The notes under the pieces were generated by a model. It was not told the DNA's origin. It did no database searches and worked only from the letters and a program-made list of their open reading frames with translations. A stretch of DNA of 19,413 nucleotides from a virus. Lineage: Duplodnaviria; Heunggongvirae; Uroviricota; Caudoviricetes. Shown here in pieces: positions 3,901 to 13,336 of this stretch. The position numbers were made by a program, and so were the translations under genes. The DNA lies in the IMG/VR virus record IMGVR_UViG_2645727843_000010. The stretch is one strand, 5' to 3'. Position 1 is the stretch's first letter; the number at the start of each line of letters is the position of its first letter.

Positions 3901-4172
3901 GTATTCGTATCGAAATTGGCGAACGTTATGTCGTTACCAGTGACAGCTTTCAGTTTATTCTCCACGAGAAAAAGAGAGCGGAAAGCGGTAAAAACGCCGG
4001 TCAGGAATGGCTGGCGGTGGTTGGTTATTATCCGAAATTAAGCCAGCTCGTTTCCGGCCTGATGCATCACGATATTCTGACCGGAAGCGCAAAGTCTTTT
4101 GCTGATTTAAACGCGCAGGTTGAGCAACTCAGCAAGCGTTGTTCAGAGGCTTTTGGCTCATATGGCCGTTAA
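3897..4172 (+). CDS. Hypothetical early protein, 91 aa, P2 orf83-like
   Basis: ATG at 3897 overlaps the upstream stop (ATGA); 3' end overlaps the A start by 11 nt. Confidence 0.6.
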   Translation: MSIRIEIGERYVVTSDSFQFILHEKKRAESGKNAGQEWLAVVGYYPKLSQLVSGLMHHDILTGSAKSFADLNAQVEQLSKRCSEAFGSYGR

Positions 4173-6447
4173 AGCCTCCGGGCGTTTTGTCCCTCCGTCA
4201 GCATTTGCCGCAGGCACCGGTAAGGCGTTTACCGGTGCTTATGCATGGAACGCGCCACGCGAGGCTGTCGGGCGCGAAAGACCCCTTACACGTGACGAGA
4301 TGCGTCAGGTGCAAGGTGTTTTATCCACGATTAACCGCCTGCCTTACTTTTTGCGCTCGCTGTTTACTTCACGCTATGACTACATCCGGCGCAATAAAAG
4401 CCCGGTGCACGGGTTTTATTTCCTCACATCCACTTTTCAGCGTCGTTTATGGCCGCGCATTGAGCGTGTGAATCAGCGCCATGAAATGAACACCGACGCG
4501 TCGTTACTGTTTCTGGCAGAGCGTGACCACTATGCGCGCCTGCCGGGAATGAATGACAAGGAGCTGAAAAAGTTTGCTGCCCGTATCTCATCGCAGCTTT
4601 TCATGATGTATGAGGAACTCAGCGATGCCTGGGTGGATGCGCATGGCGAAAAAGAATCGCTGTTTACGGATGAGGCGCAGGCTCACCTGTATGGTCATGT
4701 TGCTGGCGCTGCACGTGCTTTCAATATTTCCCCTCTCTACTGGAAAAAATACCGTAAAGGGCAGATGACCACGAGGCAGGCATATTCTGCCATTGCCCGT
4801 CTGTTTAACGATGAGTGGTGGACTCATCAGCTTAAAGGCCAGCGTATGCGCTGGCATGAGGCGTTACTGATAGCTGTCGGGGAAGTCAATAAAGACCGTT
4901 CTCCTTATGCCAGTAAACATGCCATTCGTGATGTGTGTGCACGCCGCCAGGCAAATCTGGAATTTCTTAAATCGTGTGACCTTGAAAACAGGGAAACCGG
5001 CGAGCGCATCGACCTTATCAGTAAGGTGATGGGAAGTATTTCTAATCCTGAAATTCGCCGGATGGAGCTGATGAACACCATTGCCGGTATTGAGCGTTAC
5101 GCCGCTGCAGAGGGTGATGTGGGGATGTTTATCACGCTGACCGCGCCGTCAAAGTATCACCCGACACGTCAGGTCGGAAAAGGCGAAAGTAAAACCGTGC
5201 AGCTTAATCACGGCTGGAACGATGAGGCATTTAATCCAAAGGATGCGCAGCGTTATCTCTGCCGTATCTGGAGCCTGATGCGCACGGCATTCAAGGATAA
5301 TGATTTACAGGTCTACGGTTTGCGTGTTGTTGAACCACACCACGACGGAACGCCGCACTGGCATATGATGCTTTTTTGTAATCCACGCCAGCGTAACCAG
5401 ATTATTGAAATCATGCGTCGCTATGCGCTCAAAGAGGATGGCGACGAAAGAGGAGCCGCGCGAAACCGTTTTCAGGCAAAACACCTTAATCGGGGCGGTG
5501 CTGCGGGGTATATCGCGAAATACATCTCAAAAAACATCGACGGCTATGCACTGGATGGTCAGCTCGATAACGATACCGGCAGACCTCTGAAAGATACTGC
5601 CGCGGCTGTTACTGCATGGGCGTCAACGTGGCGCATCCCGCAATTTAAAACGGTTGGTCTGCCGACAATGGGGGCTTACCGTGAACTACGCAAATTGCCT
5701 CGCGGCGTCAGCATTGCTGATGAGTTTGACGAACGCGTCGAGGCTGCACGCGCTGCCGCAGACAGTGGCGATTTTGCGTTGTATATCAGTGCGCAGGGTG
5801 GGGCAAATGTTCCGCGCGATTGCCAGACTGTCAGAGTCGCCCGTAGCCCGTCGGATGAAGTTAACGAGTACGAGGAAGAAGTCGAGAGAGTGGTCGGCAT
5901 TTACGCGCCACATCTCGGCGCGCGTCATATTCATATCACCAGAACGACGGACTGGCGCATTGTGCCGAAAGTTCCGGTCGTGGAGCCTTTGACTTTAAAA
6001 AGCGGCATCGCCGCGCCTCGGAGTCCTGTCAATAACTGTGGAAAGCTCACCGGTGGTGATACTTCGTTACCGGCTCCCACACCTTCTGAGCACGCCGCAG
6101 CAGTGCTTAATCTGGTTGATGACGGTGTTATTGAATGGAATGAACCGGAGGTCGTGAGGGCGCTCAGGGGTGCATTAAAACACGACCTGAGAACGCCAAA
6201 CCGTCAGCAAAGAAACGGAAGCCCGTTAAAACCACATGAAATTGCACCATCGGCCAGACTGACCCGGTCGGAAAGAATGCAAATTACCCGTATCCGCGTT
6301 GACCTTGCTCAGAACGGTATCAGGCCGCAGCGATGGGAGCTTGAGGCGCTGGCGCGTGGCGCGACCGTAAATTATGACGGGAAAAAATTCACGTATCCGG
6401 TCGCTGATGAGTGGCCGGGATTCTCAACAGTAATGGAGTGGAAATGA
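4162..6447 (+). CDS. A: P2 A protein, rolling-circle replication initiator / nickase, 761 aa
   Basis: The track ORF starts at a TTG at 4120; ATG at 4162 (MAVKASGRF...) gives 761 aa, the P2 A length as recalled. Near-identity to P2 A over the whole length from memory. Confidence 0.95.
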   Translation: MAVKASGRFVPPSAFAAGTGKAFTGAYAWNAPREAVGRERPLTRDEMRQVQGVLSTINRLPYFLRSLFTSRYDYIRRNKSPVHGFYFLTSTFQRRLWPRIERVNQRHEMNTDASLLFLAERDHYARLPGMNDKELKKFAARISSQLFMMYEELSDAWVDAHGEKESLFTDEAQAHLYGHVAGAARAFNISPLYWKKYRKGQMTTRQAYSAIARLFNDEWWTHQLKGQRMRWHEALLIAVGEVNKDRSPYASKHAIRDVCARRQANLEFLKSCDLENRETGERIDLISKVMGSISNPEIRRMELMNTIAGIERYAAAEGDVGMFITLTAPSKYHPTRQVGKGESKTVQLNHGWNDEAFNPKDAQRYLCRIWSLMRTAFKDNDLQVYGLRVVEPHHDGTPHWHMMLFCNPRQRNQIIEIMRRYALKEDGDERGAARNRFQAKHLNRGGAAGYIAKYISKNIDGYALDGQLDNDTGRPLKDTAAAVTAWASTWRIPQFKTVGLPTMGAYRELRKLPRGVSIADEFDERVEAARAAADSGDFALYISAQGGANVPRDCQTVRVARSPSDEVNEYEEEVERVVGIYAPHLGARHIHITRTTDWRIVPKVPVVEPLTLKSGIAAPRSPVNNCGKLTGGDTSLPAPTPSEHAAAVLNLVDDGVIEWNEPEVVRALRGALKHDLRTPNRQQRNGSPLKPHEIAPSARLTRSERMQITRIRVDLAQNGIRPQRWELEALARGATVNYDGKKFTYPVADEWPGFSTVMEWK

Positions 6448-6899
6448 TGGCAAAAATTCACGAGGTAAAGCTGCACGCAAAATATTTTGACCTTGTGCTG
6501 GAAGGAAAGAAACGCGCAGAGTTTCGGAAAAATGACCGTAATTATGAGCGCGGGGACACGTTGATTTTGCATGAATGGGTGCAGGGTGTGTATACGGGGC
6601 GAAAGGTTGAAGCCCGGATAACAGATGTTACTGACTTGTCAGACTGGCTGGAAGATTATGTCTTGCTAAGTATTGAGCTGCTTAATACAGGCGCATATGA
6701 GTTTGTGAACTGGAAAGAACTTAGTGAGCGTGGTCTGGTATTCAGAATTAATCATGAAATTATGCATCAGCTCGGCCTTGCTGTTGTGTATGAACCAGAG
6801 ACGGGGATGTCTGGCGGGGCAGTGGTTGGTGCGGATGGGATATGGAACTATTCAGATGAACAGGTGGAGCGTGCACAGCAAAACGGGTGGCTTGGATAA
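6444..6899 (+). CDS. ASCH/DUF3850-like domain protein, 151 aa, at the P2 orf91 position
   Basis: ATG at 6444 overlaps the A stop (ATGA). The N-terminal ~50 aa (KIHEVKLHAKYFDLVLEGKKRAEFRKNDRNYERGDTLILHEW) resembles the ASCH-like fold. Confidence 0.65.
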   Translation: MMAKIHEVKLHAKYFDLVLEGKKRAEFRKNDRNYERGDTLILHEWVQGVYTGRKVEARITDVTDLSDWLEDYVLLSIELLNTGAYEFVNWKELSERGLVFRINHEIMHQLGLAVVYEPETGMSGGAVVGADGIWNYSDEQVERAQQNGWLG

Positions 6900-7105
6900 T
6901 GCACAGAATACCAGGCGAGATACCGCAGCATAAAACTAAAAATATCAAGCTGATGGCCATTGTTCACCGTCTACAGCAGATTATGGTCAACGAAAATCTG
7001 ACGCCCGATGAGCTGGTCGGGTGTGCCGAAATAGTCCGGGATAATTACGTATGGCTTAACTATATCGGTCAGCCCAGCGCTGCACCGCCACCACGCAGAC
7101 GATAG
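6899..7105 (+). CDS. Hypothetical small protein, 68 aa
   Basis: ATG at 6899 overlaps the upstream stop (TAATG); the track start at 6887 is GTG. No recognisable domain. Lies at the backbone/cargo boundary. Confidence 0.35.
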   Translation: MHRIPGEIPQHKTKNIKLMAIVHRLQQIMVNENLTPDELVGCAEIVRDNYVWLNYIGQPSAAPPPRRR

Positions 7106-7294
7106 AGAACGCAGCCAGCTCAGGATTGGCGGGGGATAGAATAACGAGCATAGTGATGCGATTAGACAAACAGACTGACTGGTACACTTAGGATGGTTAT
7201 AGTGGTTTCTAAGTGCTTTAGCGATACATCTGGTGGACTGTTTTACCAACCTCAGAGTTAGCTGAATTTTTAACAAAATACCATTTTGATAGAT

Positions 7295-7322
7295 TTGCCT
7301 AATTTATTAATTAAACTATACT
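7295..7322 (+). promoter_or_regulatory. Candidate sigma70 promoter for the 78-aa / membrane-protein operon (-35 ttgcct, 16-bp spacer, -10 tatact)
   Basis: Hexamers read from sequence in the AT-rich intergenic region about 90 nt upstream of the 7414 start. Weak -35. Confidence 0.3.
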
Positions 7323-7413
7323 GGACTTATACACAGTGTTCTGTTAGTTGTTAGGTTGGTAAGATATTGTGAGGAGGTGATTACTATCTTGGCATCAATC
7401 AAGTGGAGGTTAA

Positions 7414-7650
7414 ATGATGAATATATTTGAACGTATTATAGGTAAAGCTGCTATTGAAAAGGAAAGAGAACTGGCGAGGAGGCTTGAAGCATCTGGAACA
7501 AACACTGTTGAGGTGGTAGGTCGAGGCGCGATTATCACGTCTAAAGAAGACTTGGCAAGCTCAGATACAGTAAAATTGATGAAAATTAAAGCAAGAAAAA
7601 TAGTTTCTGAGCAGGTAAAGCAAGAAGAAAAAATGGCTAAAGGGAATTAA
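7414..7650 (+). CDS. Hypothetical small charged protein, 78 aa, first gene of a two-gene cargo operon
   Basis: ATG at 7414 with GGAGG 5 nt upstream. K/E-rich and hydrophilic. Stop is 2 nt before the next ATG. Confidence 0.6.
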   Translation: MMNIFERIIGKAAIEKERELARRLEASGTNTVEVVGRGAIITSKEDLASSDTVKLMKIKARKIVSEQVKQEEKMAKGN

Positions 7651-7652
7651 TA

Positions 7653-8414
7653 ATGTTTGCTTTATTAATTATTCCATTACTTGTGAGTGGTTATATTGTA
7701 TTAACCACTCATCCTTATCATTTCTATAGATTACACCGTTATGATGGGCAGTTGTTATATATGAAGTCAGCCGCCTTTGGTCTGTGGTGTTTTATATGGA
7801 CATTGATTATAGCTTACTTAATAAAATGGATATGTCCGAGCTTCCATCCTGTCACGATGGTTCGGGAACAATTAGATCTCAAACTTAGTGACAATGGTAC
7901 TGAAAGAATCATAGGATGGATGATTTTACTTTCATGTGGAACGATATTTTTGGCTTGGATATGGAGTGTCGGTGCTAGATATTTGGTTATATATAGAGCT
8001 AAAATTATAAATTATATCCAAGGGGTAAAGGCTGCCAATATTGATTATGAGAATCTTGTCATGCTAAGGATGAGGCAAGAGCTTATTAATGATAATCCAA
8101 TGGATGAAATATTTTTTGATTCGTTAGTTGATAGACGTTCAATACTTATTACGTTGCAAAATAAAAAGACATATGTAGGAATTGTTAACGCATTAGGTGA
8201 GCCTAACGAGAAAGAAGGACCTAACCAGTATGTTTCAATCTATCCTATTATCTCTGGGTATAGAGATAAGGATTCATTGAAAGTAATCTTGGTGAATGAA
8301 TATAGAGAGCTTGAGGATGCTGATACTAGTATCATCTTTCCACTAAAAGAAATTTCGCAAGTTTCTTGGTTTGATATGGATATTCATAAAATAGTTGAAA
8401 ATAATAAGGTGTAG
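7653..8414 (+). CDS. Hypothetical membrane protein, 253 aa: three predicted N-terminal TM helices plus a ~145-aa soluble C-terminal domain
   Basis: ATG at 7653. Hydrophobic segments at about residues 1-19, 41-63 and 87-109. AT-rich codon usage unlike the phage backbone. No family recognised. Confidence 0.75.
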   Translation: MFALLIIPLLVSGYIVLTTHPYHFYRLHRYDGQLLYMKSAAFGLWCFIWTLIIAYLIKWICPSFHPVTMVREQLDLKLSDNGTERIIGWMILLSCGTIFLAWIWSVGARYLVIYRAKIINYIQGVKAANIDYENLVMLRMRQELINDNPMDEIFFDSLVDRRSILITLQNKKTYVGIVNALGEPNEKEGPNQYVSIYPIISGYRDKDSLKVILVNEYRELEDADTSIIFPLKEISQVSWFDMDIHKIVENNKV

Positions 8415-8417
8415 TAA

Positions 8418-8442
8418 ATGGTCACCTATAAAAGGTGACCAT
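8418..8442. terminator. Bidirectional hairpin between convergent cassettes (atggtcacct-ataaa-aggtgaccat)
   Basis: Perfect 10-bp stem with 5-nt loop, between the stop at 8414 (+) and the stop at 8448 (-); T/A-rich flanks on both sides. Confidence 0.6.
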
Positions 8443-8447
8443 AATGC

Positions 8448-10712
8448 TTATTTTTGACGAATCCTGATTTTTGGTTGTTCACGAACAACAATATCAGTTT
8501 CTTTCCAACCAAGATTATTTATTTCAACCTCGGCTTCGTTGTAGACTGTAGTAGAATTGGCAAGAGATCTTAACGTAATAGCCAATACAGCACGTTGAGG
8601 TGAAGATAGAGGCTCTTGCTCTGCTCGTCTCTGAACATCAAGTTTAAGTCTCCATTGCTCCCCATTTATACCTTGCGGAAATTGTTTTCTATAAACTTTG
8701 ACTGGAGACCATTTGAAGCCATTTTCTATCAGTACCTTTTCAAATAATTCACTCTTTTCTTTTATTTGTGGAATTTTTCCGCTATGTATCCATTTAGCGT
8801 TAACTGGATCATAAGTGTAAGTCCCGAATGACACATCCACATTAGAACGGCAATATTCAGATGGGTAGTCATAATCAAGCGGTGGAGAATAAACGAGTGT
8901 CATAATAATTTCACCTGTGAATTTTCCATCCTCAGTACGTAATGACTGTGGTATTACAAATGGCGTTCTACTGAATTCAATACCTTCTCGGGTATCTATT
9001 TCAAATAGAAATGTAATCTCATTTTTATTGCAACCAATAATATCATTTATATGATCGCTTGGGCGTCCAAATCCTTGATAATTAAACGCATAATGCTCCG
9101 TTTTGGCTGGTGAGTTTTTTAACGCAGAATGAATTAATAGTGCCTTGATACGTTCAGGCGATGGTGAAATAGAACCATTAACATCTAGTTCATGCCACAG
9201 TGATGCCGCTAAACTTGAGATTAACGGTGCTGATAAACTTGTGCCAATACTTTCGCAAAGAGCATTGTCCTCGCCAATAGCTATGATTCCGGTATGTTCA
9301 CAGTTTAATTTACTGTCACAATTACCTCCAAAGTGATTTATCTCTGGTTTGGGTATAAAGGCTGGGCCGGGACCTCTTCTAGAAAAAGATGAAGGTTCAA
9401 ATCTTTTGACCACAGAGTCAGACGATTCTAAATGGGCAACTGAGCCAACAGTTAATGAACGAACAGAATCTGCGGGGGCTGATATTCTGTCATGCCCACC
9501 TAATTCTTGAGGAGGCCAGGTTCGTTGAGGATCATAAATGTAGTTGCCGGATGCTACGACGAAAAGACAATCATGCTCATCATGAAGTGCATTTAAAAAA
9601 TGCCCCAATTCAGAGAAGCTGTCTTCAGAACATGGGGATTGACAACCTAATGACAGATTCCATACACGTACTTCTGGATAGGTGGTCACAGCCTCTCGGA
9701 TAGCTTTCATTAATTGTGGCAATTTGAGCGTACCATCTTTGGGAAAGGCTGCAACATCAACAATTTCAGCTTGGCATTGAGGAAAACCAGCATAGTTATT
9801 CAACCATCTTCCATTAATTGCTAAACTTGCAACCATGTTCCCATGAGAATAGTCGTGTTCTCCTTTTACTAAATCTAAACTATCCCAAATCCATGGCCTA
9901 AGTATGTTGTTATTGGGATCGACTCCGCTATCTATAATTCCGAGTAGTGGATAATGTTTATCCTCTTGAGGTAAGGGAAAATCATCTAGGTCTAGAGTTT
10001 CAGCAGGAATATATTGCGATACTGTATGAGTAAGACCAAATGTTGGCATAGGTTCTAATTTTCGTATGCCAATAAAACTTGCCAGTTGGGCGATGTTATC
10101 ATTCCCTTTTACTTCATATATACTCAAATCTGAACTGATATCATACTTTTTGGGTTTTTGTATTCCTAGTTCATCTGCAAATTCCATTAATTCTTTGTCG
10201 ATACTGCGGTTAGTTGTTCTATCTTTATGGTCAAAGAGTTTCAGAAGAAAACTATCTGATTTATTTTTATCTATAACATCATGGTTAAGACTAAAAGGTT
10301 CGATCTTTTCAATTACAGCAATATGTACTGTTCCATTATGAGAATTAGTGCTATTTTCAATTTTTTTGCGAAGTTGTGCTAACCCTTTTTCAGTAACACT
10401 TATAAGTAATTCTCCAAAATTATCACTGCCTATTACGGGACATGTATTATCACCTAATAGGCTTGATGGGCGATGTGACTTAGCAAGAGCTTTTTCATGA
10501 AGAGTAACTCTAGCCACCGCCGGTATATTGGGCCATTTTTTAAATGAGCTCTGGAAAAAATTTTTAACGTCATCGACTTCTTGTTTGAGTCTATTTTTTA
10601 GACTAGTTGTTACTGTTCGGATAGGTTGTTTCTTTCCGAAATTATATGTTTTTTCAGTAAAATCTTGAGGTGTCGCCTCAATTATTTTTATTGGTCTTTC
10701 TTTGTTACTCAT
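8448..10712 (-). CDS. Subtilisin-like serine protease (peptidase S8), 754 aa; IetS-like
   Basis: Catalytic motifs in canonical order: Asp (GIIDSGVD), His (YSHGNMVASLA), oxyanion Asn (VVASGN), Ser (GTSLSAPLISS). ATG overlaps the upstream ATPase stop (ATGA). Confidence 0.9.
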   Translation of the reverse strand: MSNKERPIKIIEATPQDFTEKTYNFGKKQPIRTVTTSLKNRLKQEVDDVKNFFQSSFKKWPNIPAVARVTLHEKALAKSHRPSSLLGDNTCPVIGSDNFGELLISVTEKGLAQLRKKIENSTNSHNGTVHIAVIEKIEPFSLNHDVIDKNKSDSFLLKLFDHKDRTTNRSIDKELMEFADELGIQKPKKYDISSDLSIYEVKGNDNIAQLASFIGIRKLEPMPTFGLTHTVSQYIPAETLDLDDFPLPQEDKHYPLLGIIDSGVDPNNNILRPWIWDSLDLVKGEHDYSHGNMVASLAINGRWLNNYAGFPQCQAEIVDVAAFPKDGTLKLPQLMKAIREAVTTYPEVRVWNLSLGCQSPCSEDSFSELGHFLNALHDEHDCLFVVASGNYIYDPQRTWPPQELGGHDRISAPADSVRSLTVGSVAHLESSDSVVKRFEPSSFSRRGPGPAFIPKPEINHFGGNCDSKLNCEHTGIIAIGEDNALCESIGTSLSAPLISSLAASLWHELDVNGSISPSPERIKALLIHSALKNSPAKTEHYAFNYQGFGRPSDHINDIIGCNKNEITFLFEIDTREGIEFSRTPFVIPQSLRTEDGKFTGEIIMTLVYSPPLDYDYPSEYCRSNVDVSFGTYTYDPVNAKWIHSGKIPQIKEKSELFEKVLIENGFKWSPVKVYRKQFPQGINGEQWRLKLDVQRRAEQEPLSSPQRAVLAITLRSLANSTTVYNEAEVEINNLGWKETDIVVREQPKIRIRQK

Positions 10713-11872
10713 AATATCTCTCTATAATTCTTAGTTAGCCTTGACACTTTAGCATTTGAAAGCCCTAGTATTTTTGCTATCTTTCGTATTGTAAATCTTT
10801 TGGGATTGTATTCTCTGAGAGTGGTCACAATCTTTATAAGTAAATTATCTTCTTCATCAAATGTAACTCCCTTCGCTTCTAAGATAGCCTCGACTAAAAA
10901 TCGGGTATCGATTTGTTTATTATTGTAAACCAGAGCATGTCGCTCAGATCTTAAGCAGCATTGTTCTATAAATGAGCAGTTTAGCCCTGATGATATTTCC
11001 GCAAGGTCATCAACAAAATCGTCATATGTAGCTTTTATGTTTGAATATTGTTCAAATAGTTGTTTTCTGACTTCAAAATCAGGCAATCCAATAGATATTC
11101 TATACTCAAAGCGCCTCCAAACTGCGCTATCTAGAAGATTTTCATGATTACTTGCAGCAATCAATATTGTTTCTTCAGGTAGATTGTCAATATTTTGCAA
11201 TAAAGAAACCACCACCCTCTTCAGTTCACCTAACTCATGCTGATCATCTCTAGCCTTTGCTAGAGAATCTAGTTCATCTAGAAATAAAACACATGGTGCT
11301 TTACTTGCATACTCAAATAGCTGCCTGATATTTTTAGAAGTAGACCCCAGATATGATGAGACTAAGGAGTCACATCTTGCAGTAAGAAGCGGTAAATTTA
11401 GACAGGATGCAATATATTTTGATGTCAAGGTTTTACCACAACCTGGTGGCCCATATAAAATCATAGAGGATGTCACGCCAAGACCGGCATCCTTTAATTC
11501 TTTAGCTCGTTCAGTGAAAGTCAAAAATTCTTTAATTTTTTTCAGAGTGCTATCTTTCAACAATGGGAGTTGAATTTCAGAAGACGGTTGAGTTACGTCT
11601 GCTAAATCAAATTTAGTTTCTTTATCTACAGGTAATGTATCAAGACGTTCAAAAATAGGTGATGTACTGCGTGATACTTTCTGCAAGTTAAACGTGTTTT
11701 TATCTTGAATACTACCTCTAATGGCTGAAGCAAGCTCAGGCAGCCCCATAGAATCATAGGAACGCGCGAGTTTCGAAGCCTGCCGAACAAAAGCAACTTT
11801 ATCCCCTTTGAGTCCAAGACTGATAAGCTGCGAAAGTATCTCGTTTGTGGTCATTTGTGATACAAACCTCAT
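10709..11872 (-). CDS. Classical AAA+ ATPase, 387 aa; IetA-like
   Basis: Walker A (GPPGCGKT), Walker B (VLFLDELD), sensor-1 Asn (IAASN), arginine fingers (AVWRRF). No strong Shine-Dalgarno seen, so the start is less certain (alternative Met 6 codons in). Confidence 0.88.
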   Translation of the reverse strand: MRFVSQMTTNEILSQLISLGLKGDKVAFVRQASKLARSYDSMGLPELASAIRGSIQDKNTFNLQKVSRSTSPIFERLDTLPVDKETKFDLADVTQPSSEIQLPLLKDSTLKKIKEFLTFTERAKELKDAGLGVTSSMILYGPPGCGKTLTSKYIASCLNLPLLTARCDSLVSSYLGSTSKNIRQLFEYASKAPCVLFLDELDSLAKARDDQHELGELKRVVVSLLQNIDNLPEETILIAASNHENLLDSAVWRRFEYRISIGLPDFEVRKQLFEQYSNIKATYDDFVDDLAEISSGLNCSFIEQCCLRSERHALVYNNKQIDTRFLVEAILEAKGVTFDEEDNLLIKIVTTLREYNPKRFTIRKIAKILGLSNAKVSRLTKNYREIL

Positions 11873-12113
11873 TAATCTGTTGTCTAAATGGCTTATAGGT
11901 GAGACAAATTTCTATTTTAATGTAGTTTATATGTATTTTGGTGAAACGAACACTATGTTTTACATAAATCTTTCAGGTTTGGAGTTCTTGGAGGGCATAG
12001 AGTTGCATCAATTTGCATTCTAATTAGACTTTTTTATTGCTATCGTATTCTACATGTGACTAGGTCTGCCCTTCCTGATGCGTTTGCATTAAAACCTCCC
12101 CATGAAGCGGGCG

Positions 12114-12132
12114 GGCGAGGCGGGGAAAGCAC
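12114..12132. other. Putative cos cohesive-end sequence ggcgaggcggggaaagcac
   Basis: Matches the P2 19-nt cohesive end as I recall it. Sits in a GC-rich block just downstream of Q, where P2 has cos. Confidence 0.55.
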
Positions 12133-12274
12133 TGCGCGCTGGCGGTGGTGCGGATTTTATTTTTTCAGCGTCTGAGCGCGTCGTGACGGCGCTTAGTCTG
12201 CCCGTTGAGGCGTTGGTGTGTCTGCGGGGTGTTTTGTGCGGTGGTGAGCGTGTGAGGGGGTGATGACGGGGTGT

Positions 12275-12296
12275 AAAAAAGCCGCCCGCAGGCGGC
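12275..12296 (-). terminator. Rho-independent terminator after Q (GCCGCC-TGCG-GGCGGC then T6 on the minus strand)
   Basis: GC stem plus a U-tract immediately 3' of the Q stop. Confidence 0.7.
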
Positions 12297-12301
12297 GATG
12301 T

Positions 12302-13336
12302 TCAGCCGTTGTCAGTGTCCAGTGAGTAGTTTTTAAATCGGATGACCTCCTGACCGAGCCAGCCGTTTATCTCGCGGATCCTGTCCTGTAACGGGATAAG
12401 CTCATTGCGGACAAAGACCTTTGCCACTTTCTCAATATCACCCAGCGACCCGACGTTCTCCGGCTTGCCCCCCATCAACTGAAAGGGGATGCGATGCGCG
12501 TCCAGCAGGTCAGCGGCGCTGGCTTTTTTGATATTAAAAAAATCGTCCTTCGTTGCCACTTCACTGAGCGGGATAATTTTAATGCCGTCGGCTTTCCCCT
12601 GTGGGGCATAGAGAAACAGATTTTTAAAGTTATTGCGGCCTTTCGACTTAACCATGTTTTCGCGAAGCATTTCGATATCGTTGCGATCCTGCACGGCATC
12701 GGTGACGTACATGATGTATCCGGCATGAGCGCCGTTTTCGTAATACTTGCGGCGGAACAGCGTGGCCGACTCATTCAGCCAGGCAGAGTTAAGGGCGCTG
12801 AGATATTCCGGCAGGCCGTACAGCTCCTGATTAATATCCGGCTCCAGCAGGTGAAACACGGAGCCGGGCGCGAAAGGTGTCGGCTCATGGAAGGACGGCA
12901 CCCACCAGTAAACATCCTCTTCCACGCCACGGCGGGTATATTTTGCCGGTGAGGTTTCCAGTCTGATGACCTTACCGGTGGTGCTGTAACGCTTTTCCAG
13001 AAACGCATTACCGAACACCAGAAAATCCAGCACAAAGCGGCTGAAATCCTGCTGAGAAAGCCACGGGTGCGGGATAAACGTTGAAGCCAGAATATTGCGT
13101 TTGACGTAAATCGGTGAGCTGTGATGCACGGCAGCACGCAGGCTTTTTGCCAGACCGGTAAAGCTGACCGGTGGCTCATACCATCTGCCGTTACTGATGC
13201 ACTCGACATAATCCAGAATGTCACGGCGGTCGAGTACCGGCACCGGCTCACCAAAGGTGAATGCCTCCATTTTCGGGGCGCTGGCGGTCATTTTTTTTGC
13301 CGCAGGTTGCGGTGTTTTCCCTTTTTTCTTGCTCAT
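12302..13336 (-). CDS. Q: Portal vertex protein, 344 aa
   Basis: ATG (cat at 13334-13336). Length equals P2 Q as recalled; strong recognition. Start overlaps the P stop. Confidence 0.95.
   Translation of the reverse strand: MSKKKGKTPQPAAKKMTASAPKMEAFTFGEPVPVLDRRDILDYVECISNGRWYEPPVSFTGLAKSLRAAVHHSSPIYVKRNILASTFIPHPWLSQQDFSRFVLDFLVFGNAFLEKRYSTTGKVIRLETSPAKYTRRGVEEDVYWWVPSFHEPTPFAPGSVFHLLEPDINQELYGLPEYLSALNSAWLNESATLFRRKYYENGAHAGYIMYVTDAVQDRNDIEMLRENMVKSKGRNNFKNLFLYAPQGKADGIKIIPLSEVATKDDFFNIKKASAADLLDAHRIPFQLMGGKPENVGSLGDIEKVAKVFVRNELIPLQDRIREINGWLGQEVIRFKNYSLDTDNG

Follow-up and report, generated by a model that had tools for sequence, protein, structure and literature searches.

The stretch of DNA analysed here (the window) comprises 19,413 nucleotides (nt) of IMG/VR virus record IMGVR_UViG_2645727843_000010, a P2-like prophage whose sequence is identical to that of IMG/VR contig IMGVR_UViG_2695420394_000006. 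Our subject is a pair of coupled genes in its cargo island, which encode a small protein of 78 amino acids (aa) and an inner-membrane protein of 253 aa, together with ietS and ietA, the two genes of the defence system IetAS, which converge on the pair. We find that the pair is a real, widespread and uncharacterised module, set here within a mobile four-gene cassette with IetAS, and on that account a promising, though unproven, candidate component of phage defence. The features of the pair and its flanks, with open reading frames (ORFs) as called, are as follows.

7295..7322, plus strand: candidate sigma-70 promoter (TTGCCT, 16-nt spacer, TATACT), 9/12 matches in a consensus scan
7319..7338, plus strand: LexA (SOS) box-like palindrome TACTGGACTTATACACAGTG, overlapping the -10 hexamer of the candidate promoter
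7405..7409, plus strand: Shine-Dalgarno sequence GGAGG of the small-protein gene, read from the sequence, 4 nt before the ATG at 7414 and 7 nt before the ATG at 7417
7414..7650, plus strand: small-protein gene, 78 aa (ORF call)
7653..8414, plus strand: inner-membrane-protein gene, 253 aa (ORF call)
7653..7976, plus strand: N-terminal membrane region with three hydrophobic helices and the conserved cytoplasmic loop RLHRYDGQLLYMK (from hydropathy, charge, model and invariant residues)
8097..8372, plus strand: predicted cytoplasmic Sm/Hfq-like domain, aa ~149-240, one helix followed by a five- to six-stranded bent beta-barrel
8418..8442, no strand assigned: hairpin between the converging membrane-protein and IetS genes, -19.4 kcal/mol, z -4.4

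An earlier reading of this DNA, made from the sequence alone (the sequence-only reading), had described two coupled genes with their own Shine-Dalgarno sequence and candidate promoter, ending at a hairpin. Both ORFs lie exactly where it placed them, and their coupling is evident: the small gene stops at 7648-7650 and the ATG of the membrane gene follows at 7653, across a gap of 2 nt. Ratios of nonsynonymous to synonymous substitution (dN/dS) were 0.03-0.07 for both genes in three comparisons (against the Enterobacter copy, against the Pectobacterium copy, and between the Scandinavium and Salmonella copies), with about 0.05 for the small gene and 0.03-0.05 for the membrane gene. These low ratios indicate that both ORFs are real coding genes, and they point to strong purifying selection. 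The Shine-Dalgarno sequence and the hairpin are likewise present; none of 200 shuffles folded as well as the hairpin, which is probably a bidirectional terminator. The promoter stands less firmly. A consensus match, the one promoter-like site ahead of the pair, exists and falls inside the stretch that travels with the cassette, but promoter-like sites numbered nine here against 6.6 expected in shuffles, which is no excess, and the candidate is not significant alone.

The window contains a single TACTG-N10-CAGT site (0.07 expected), the palindrome overlapping this candidate promoter. The LexA consensus is TACTGTATATATATACAGTA, with the core CTG-N10-CAG; the site agrees with it at 15 of 20 positions, with CTG and CAG intact. 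Relatives of the pair were examined in a set of 120 loci (genomes, viral contigs and phage records), some of them redundant. Among these, the box is retained in Enterobacter and Citrobacter (L002, L003) and, as TACTGTTTTTATAAACAGTT, in Pectobacterium (L063), amid otherwise diverged intergenic DNA, and the Yersinia copy (59% identity) has only a degenerate box-like stretch. In a subclade at 55% identity, another conserved palindrome, TACTATAT(A/G)TAGTG, takes the place of the box ahead of the small gene (L005 7700-7760, L067 5700-5760 and L075 5700-5760), which suggests another regulator. Since the box is limited to the closest sublineage, SOS control of the pair through LexA is plausible for that sublineage only. 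The possibility that the box is a relic of a 186-type p95/tum backbone promoter was rejected: DNA homology to P2-family phages and their backbone ends at position 7118, before the box is reached, which makes the box part of the cargo.

The 78-aa protein is soluble, charged and cytoplasmic. Its AlphaFold2 model (predicted local distance difference test score, pLDDT, 71) runs from a helix through a beta-hairpin with an invariant V.VVGRG turn to further helices and resembles no solved fold. Its family, with 194 matches, includes none to Pfam; among the PHROGs it falls into phrog_37504 (E 3.2e-53, profile 1-78 of 78), annotated "unknown function". An AbrB/MazE-type antitoxin fold was considered for the VVGRG hairpin and dropped, given the lack of a Pfam match and a model with a single hairpin only.

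The 253-aa protein had been described as a three-helix membrane protein with a cytoplasmic C-terminal domain, and our analysis agrees. Hydropathy gives three hydrophobic segments (aa 1-19, ~39-60 and 86 to ~104-108), and the charge distribution supports an N-out, C-in orientation, with the first loop and also the C-terminal domain on the cytoplasmic side; Rousset et al. scored "2 TM" (transmembrane segments) for this protein (PMC9122126). In the AlphaFold2 model (pLDDT 78), helices at 3-19, 32-60 and 83-123 and two short helices are followed by a helix and a beta-barrel at ~149-240. The barrel has the hallmarks of the Sm fold, an N-terminal helix and a strongly bent five-stranded barrel, and we accordingly describe the product as an inner-membrane protein with three N-terminal helices and a predicted cytoplasmic Sm/Hfq-like barrel. 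Conservation in the family is strongest in the first membrane helix, in the loop RLHRYDGQLLYMK and in barrel motifs such as K.Y.G, EP.E and SGYR.KD. C-terminal tails vary among the relatives, being basic in many, acidic in others, or carrying an extra C-terminal membrane helix, and one 322-aa family member (P0300) ends in an H-NS-type DNA-binding domain (Pfam Histone_HNS, E 1.2e-9).

The likeness to Sm proteins is one of fold: the 253-aa protein has no Pfam LSM or Hfq match at E <= 0.1. Structure searches found no full-length structural relative, a sequence-profile search of the PDB for solved structures found no match, and Foldseek against the BFVD viral structures returned no full-length match, only Sm-like domains at E >= 3e-3. 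Neither family scans nor structure comparison revealed any resemblance to a housekeeping transporter, in keeping with the sequence-only reading, which had also recognised no family for either protein. This holds for Pfam, NCBIfam (above cut-off) and PADLOC, none of which has a family for either protein, while both fall in PHROGs families of unknown function, the membrane protein in phrog_3630 (E 3.3e-86, profile 1-252 of 274). PADLOC-DB v2.0.0 at E <= 0.1 had no match for the two proteins or for five diverse relatives; the nearest NCBIfam model, the STM3941 family (NF041635), scored 16.1 bits (E 0.0078), below its curated 40-bit cut-off; and fifty distant family members of the membrane protein have no Pfam domain in common.

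Linkage of the pair to IetAS

Downstream of the hairpin lie two genes on the opposite strand.

8448..10712, minus strand: ietS, S8 subtilase-type peptidase (PADLOC IetS E 1.1e-273, profile 1-747 of 749; Pfam Peptidase_S8)
10709..11872, minus strand: ietA, AAA+ ATPase (PADLOC IetA E 9.1e-132; Pfam AAA)

IetAS, reportedly described by Gao and colleagues in 2020, consists of the AAA+ ATPase IetA and the S8 protease IetS. The stretch 8448-11872 has this composition, an S8 protease gene adjoining an AAA+ ATPase gene, and the second defence-like cassette that had been noticed next to the pair is thus a genuine IetAS (PADLOC E 1e-273 and 9e-132). The accompanying view of the pair as a separate cassette merely lying beside another did not survive; in this lineage the pair is half of a four-gene unit with IetAS.

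Within the clade with at least 55% membrane-protein identity, IetS converges on the pair 25-49 nt downstream, followed by IetA, in 18 of the 22 loci; the four exceptions are frameshifted Arsenophonus copies and one truncated contig, and every intact relative has IetS. The four proteins diverge in lockstep. Identities to the window for the small protein, membrane protein, IetS and IetA are 89/88/90/84% in Enterobacter, 72/76/78/66% in Pectobacterium, 52/59/63/55% in Yersinia and 54/55/60/55% in Salmonella, Scandinavium and L075. Moreover, one cassette variant occurs in three contexts, a P2 hotspot (L005), a P4-like integrase island (L067/L068) and another viral contig (L075). By blastn, L005 and L075, and likewise L067 and L075, share homology over about 4.7 kb only, beginning about 110 nt ahead of the small gene and ending just beyond the start of ietA; in the comparison of L005 with L067, homology reaches further upstream. 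Of 5,426 complete E. coli genomes, the same 12 carry both the pair and this IetAS, side by side. In the reverse direction, the pair was present in all seven viral loci with IetS of at least 60% identity, as against one of 58 with IetS of at most 43%.

Linkage, co-divergence and co-transfer of the pair with both IetS and IetA were all found. These comparisons show a mobile cassette of about 4.7 kb in which the pair, on one strand, is transcribed towards ietS and ietA. The cassette is passed on as one piece, both by inheritance and by transfer between P2 hotspots, the P4-like integrase island and other sites. This coupling is the most interesting aspect of the locus, and it lies outside the interval 7414-8414 on which the sequence-only reading had concentrated. 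As the pair stands on the strand opposite to IetAS, operon-based searches would miss it.

The same geometry recurs on a deep branch, in IMGVR_UViG_2937525446_000001 (L158, 2392-6779). There, IetS (34% identity) and IetA converge on a 294-aa relative of the membrane protein (26% identity, E 7e-9), and the two arms share about 26 nt at their overlapping 3' ends. The membrane gene is preceded by a 69-aa ORF, whose alignment to the small protein (hhalign E 0.35) is not statistically supported. A CI/LexA-like repressor gene lies next door. Taken together, the pair family is autonomous in general, but it has become stably coupled to IetAS in at least one lineage, probably two.

According to Liu et al. 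(2026, PMC13069673), the mechanism of IetAS is unknown, and its protease behaves as a toxin for which the ATPase is the antitoxin. In the ietHAS variant described in the same study, IetAS has acquired a helicase, IetH, as an essential extra module (PMC13069673), and this gain is a precedent for the recruitment of modules by IetAS. The window locus likewise looks like an IetAS that gained an extra module inherited with it. It differs from ietHAS in that the extra module is a two-gene membrane/Sm pair rather than a helicase, is convergent rather than part of the same operon, and is widespread without IetAS.

Distribution, genomic niches and earlier records

The membrane protein had 241 word-index matches and 2,595 cluster representatives (50% identity) at E <= 1e-3. 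Its relatives are nearly all 240-340 aa long with the same layout, and those with a source name are called hypothetical or uncharacterised. Of the 115 loci in the set with enough sequence, 104 have a relative of the small gene immediately ahead of the membrane gene and in the same orientation, and six of eight inspected among the remaining, distant loci keep a small coupled upstream ORF with the hairpin-plus-helix pattern; the pair therefore behaves as a two-gene unit. It was found across Gamma-, Beta- and Alphaproteobacteria and in a spirochaete, from Enterobacteria to Pseudomonas, Lautropia, Novosphingobium, Asticcacaulis and Turneriella, and the genes around it, other than the partner, vary widely. 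The sequence-only reading had made its proposal depend on homologues that co-occur as a pair and are enriched in defence islands. Co-occurrence is borne out by these 104 loci, which span the three proteobacterial classes and the spirochaete. As to enrichment, the pair recurs in phage accessory hotspots (P2, P4-like and lambdoid), but non-phage copies are not clearly enriched in defence islands.

Enterobacterial copies occupy three niches: the P2 gpA-gpQ hotspot, where the pair is often the cargo nearest to Q; the stretch between int and attP in lambdoid phages, Cronobacter phiES15 among them; and a P4-like island with AlpA and a P4-type integrase. Adjacency to an integrase was rejected as a general rule, as it holds only for the lambdoid subclade. 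P2 hotspots have 1,650 arrangements in E. coli, turn over fast and often hold several systems, and the tested cargo of phage accessory hotspots is largely anti-phage (PMC9122126). One P2-like example is Klebsiella phage ST15-OXA48phi14.1 (L061, 4783-7492), where a distant pair is followed, in the same hotspot, by a 69-aa ORF and a bSEFIR defence protein (PADLOC E 7e-103). In the endosymbionts Arsenophonus, Sodalis and Phlomobacter (L004, L006, L039, L042, L051, L052 and L055), the membrane gene is split into two or three ORFs, and these copies are probably pseudogenes.

The pair had been proposed as the most likely undescribed system in the window, and on this point the literature corrects the proposal. 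In the survey of the P2 gpA-gpQ hotspot by Rousset et al. (2022, PMC9122126), Table S5B contains a "system 57", with 75 occurrences in E. coli P2-like prophages, and both of its protein sequences are identical to those of the window. The entry lists no domains, the note "2 TM in protein 1" and no link to IetAS (PMC9122126). The pair is therefore not wholly undescribed, though by a catalogue entry only, and is less new than first thought. Its peptides are absent from the tables of cloned systems in the same work (PMC9122126), which thus gives no sign that "system 57" was tested. Literature searches on the accessions, on IetAS and on Sm- or Hfq-like proteins in defence turned up no functional study of the pair.

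Another entry of Table S5B, "system 43" (PMC9122126), is a 260-aa single-gene P2-hotspot protein with 93 occurrences and "2 TM", and is a distant relative of the membrane protein with the motifs SRKVYIGYV and SGYRDKDTL. Related phage copies (Klebsiella ST15-OXA48phi14.1 and Salmonella SEN5) have a small upstream ORF that is missing from the table. We saw no sign of kinship between the pair and two other candidates: the validated "2TM + 1TM + TIR" system of phage AC1, whose sequences differ, and the "Peptidase + TM" construct of Rousset et al., judged by the absence of the pair peptides from the cloned tables, its own protein sequences not having been inspected.

Candidate functions of the pair

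The explanation that we favour, tentatively and somewhat short of an even chance, is that the pair works at the membrane as an effector or sensor module which the small protein gates and which IetAS has recruited. Sm-type domains normally form six- or seven-membered rings, and on this basis the membrane protein would probably form a ring through its Sm domains that gathers 18-21 membrane helices. In MscS, a heptamer, an Sm-like beta domain in the cytoplasm comes after three membrane helices; the 253-aa protein shares this order, and the likeness is the basis of the idea of a ring or pore, while the MS_channel domains and the pore-lining third helix directly before the beta domain that define MscS were not found in it. 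The small protein would probably dock on the cytoplasmic ring and keep it inactive or report a trigger. On a cue such as infection or DNA damage, the complex could then alter membrane permeability or block DNA entry, and the module would serve phage defence or exclusion at the membrane. In IetAS-linked lineages it might be an added sensor or effector arm of the protease and ATPase, with IetS, for example, removing the small protein, and expression in the window's sublineage may be LexA-controlled. We thus infer for the pair a defence role, a connection to IetS and gatekeeping by the small protein. In its most specific form, a new membrane immune component in which an Sm ring is gated by a small hairpin protein and IetS acts through that ring, for instance by cleaving the gatekeeper, the scheme seems to us improbable.

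We also compared the pair with other systems. Lambda RexAB and Kiwa (KwaAB) are, like it, two-gene systems borne by phages or islands, in which a membrane protein is joined by a cytoplasmic partner and the presumed site of action is the membrane; they differ in sizes and folds, the window pair has no PADLOC match, and its soluble partner is the small one. Unlike Hfq, Sm and LSm proteins and the WYL sensors DriD, BrxR and CapW, the 253-aa protein has no Pfam LSM, Hfq or WYL match, and its domain is tethered by three helices; the ligand-binding pocket of WYL proteins was not found in it either. Neither PADLOC defence families nor our literature searches yielded a membrane-tethered Sm/Hfq-like domain.

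The favoured explanation has competitors, of which the strongest is essentially the view of the sequence-only reading: a self-sufficient abortive-infection or superinfection-exclusion module whose adjacency to IetAS reflects co-selected hotspot cargo and no mechanistic link. Several systems often share a P2 hotspot (PMC9122126), IetAS works elsewhere as a two-gene system, and in most lineages the pair is alone, whether in P2 hotspots as the only or last cargo before Q (L091, L094, L099 and L116), in lambdoid int-attP intervals or at chromosomal sites. Yet P2 hotspots turn over fast, whereas this arrangement has held together, its proteins diverging in lockstep, in copies with as little as 55% protein identity; the cassette moves between contexts as four genes, and it recurs in the deep branch L158. 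We consider co-selection unlikely, although it deserves to be taken seriously. The pair might instead have no function in conflict, acting as a membrane-tethered Sm/Hfq-like binder of nucleic acids or ligands with a small partner, in an SOS or envelope response or in the phage life cycle. The fold itself, the member fused to an H-NS DNA-binding domain and the many basic C-terminal tails are in line with this, as are the LexA-box-like site overlapping the promoter in the closest sublineage and the many copies among housekeeping neighbours with no integrase nearby. However, the box is confined to one sublineage and the tails also include acidic ones and an extra membrane helix, while recurrence in phage accessory hotspots with largely anti-phage tested cargo and the tight coupling to IetAS speak for conflict; we rate a non-conflict role as having a low probability.

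SpoIISA/SpoIISB of Bacillus subtilis combines a membrane toxin of three transmembrane helices and a cytoplasmic domain with a small protein antitoxin, and CptA/CptB is similar. An addiction module of this layout, a membrane toxin with a small labile antitoxin that stabilises the element or cassette without any antiviral role, is the least probable of the alternatives considered. It would fit a small upstream gene translationally coupled to a larger membrane-protein gene, and carriage on many mobile elements. The general plan also agrees with SpoIISA/SpoIISB: in both, the membrane protein has about 250 aa, with three helices at its N terminus and a cytoplasmic domain at its C terminus, and the small soluble partner measures 56-88 aa. 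The window protein nevertheless has no match to Pfam SpoIISA_toxin, its cytoplasmic domain is Sm-like, not GAF-like, and the small gene comes first. In favour of addiction, the original description of IetAS, as cited in PMC13069673, was of a toxin-antitoxin system that stabilises plasmids.

A number of observations weigh against the recruited-module explanation as a whole. No IetS was found beside more distant pairs in 83 loci with at least 2.5 kb of downstream sequence; 57 of the 58 distant viral IetAS loci (IetS of at most 43% identity) are without the pair; and the distant IetAS of Dongshaea, of Acidovorax, on plasmids and in phage 683R6 lack any pair relative. Most distant pairs and most IetAS therefore occur alone, so neither needs the other, and the pair is not a component of canonical IetAS loci but at most a lineage-specific accessory. 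Many of the loci come from one phage lineage and are not independent observations. Beyond the Enterobacteria, housekeeping genes surround many copies, and no integrase lies within 8 kb of these. This is the case in the Pseudomonas oryzihabitans group (L021-L029, L032, L041 and L044), where the pair occupies one conserved chromosomal site, adjoined by an aminotransferase gene in eight of the species; the site looks like vertical inheritance, atypical of defence genes. Few of 131 neighbours in 30 non-phage loci match PADLOC models, two CBASS cyclases among them, and enrichment in defence islands is thus weak outside phages. Finally, the proposed ring and the proposed contact between the small protein and the Sm domain extrapolate from the fold, and the small protein's own model is of modest confidence and matched no known fold.

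The finding is nonetheless genuine and worth experiments. IetAS is a validated system without a known mechanism, and a co-transferred membrane module offers a concrete hypothesis on the target or input of its protease and ATPase. The pair belongs to a very large family without Pfam, NCBIfam or PADLOC annotation that recurs in P2-like, P4-like and lambdoid accessory hotspots; if active, alone or with IetAS, it would be a new type of effector or sensor. In that case it would also show that neighbours transcribed towards each other, which operon-based searches miss, can be parts of one system. Should IetS act through the Sm ring, this would offer a first way into the mechanism of IetAS and define a new, widespread family of effectors or sensors with more than 2,500 sequence clusters.

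Prophage setting of the cassette

The remaining features of the window belong to the prophage backbone and delimit the cargo.

In the window, positions not listed: integrase, C/Cox and terminase genes (prophage backbone)
4120-6447: gpA (prophage backbone)
6411-6899: DUF3850/ASCH plus DUF7415 gene (P2 orf91-like; backbone)
7119..12290: AT-rich cargo island between the gpA/orf91-like backbone and portal gene Q, right edge (~12290) approximate
12302-13336, minus strand: portal gene Q

Positions 6411-7118, holding the DUF3850/ASCH plus DUF7415 gene and then a small ORF, are conserved P2 backbone and not cargo. Given the end of P2-family homology at 7118, everything from 7119 to just before Q is cargo, and it contains the four-gene cassette of the 78-aa gene, the 253-aa gene, ietS and ietA. 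The sequence-only reading had assigned the pair to an AT-rich island at the old/tin position of P2. Both points agree with our data: the cargo falls between gpA and gpQ, and G+C content is 0.32-0.42 over ~7001-12000 as against more than 0.5 in the backbone. The same prophage occurs in E. coli E302 (L001, NZ_AP022362.1 1801789-1820939), where an insertion of ISEc12 (IS21 family) splits gpA. That copy is decaying, with gpA split and the terminase frameshifted, yet its four cargo genes are intact.

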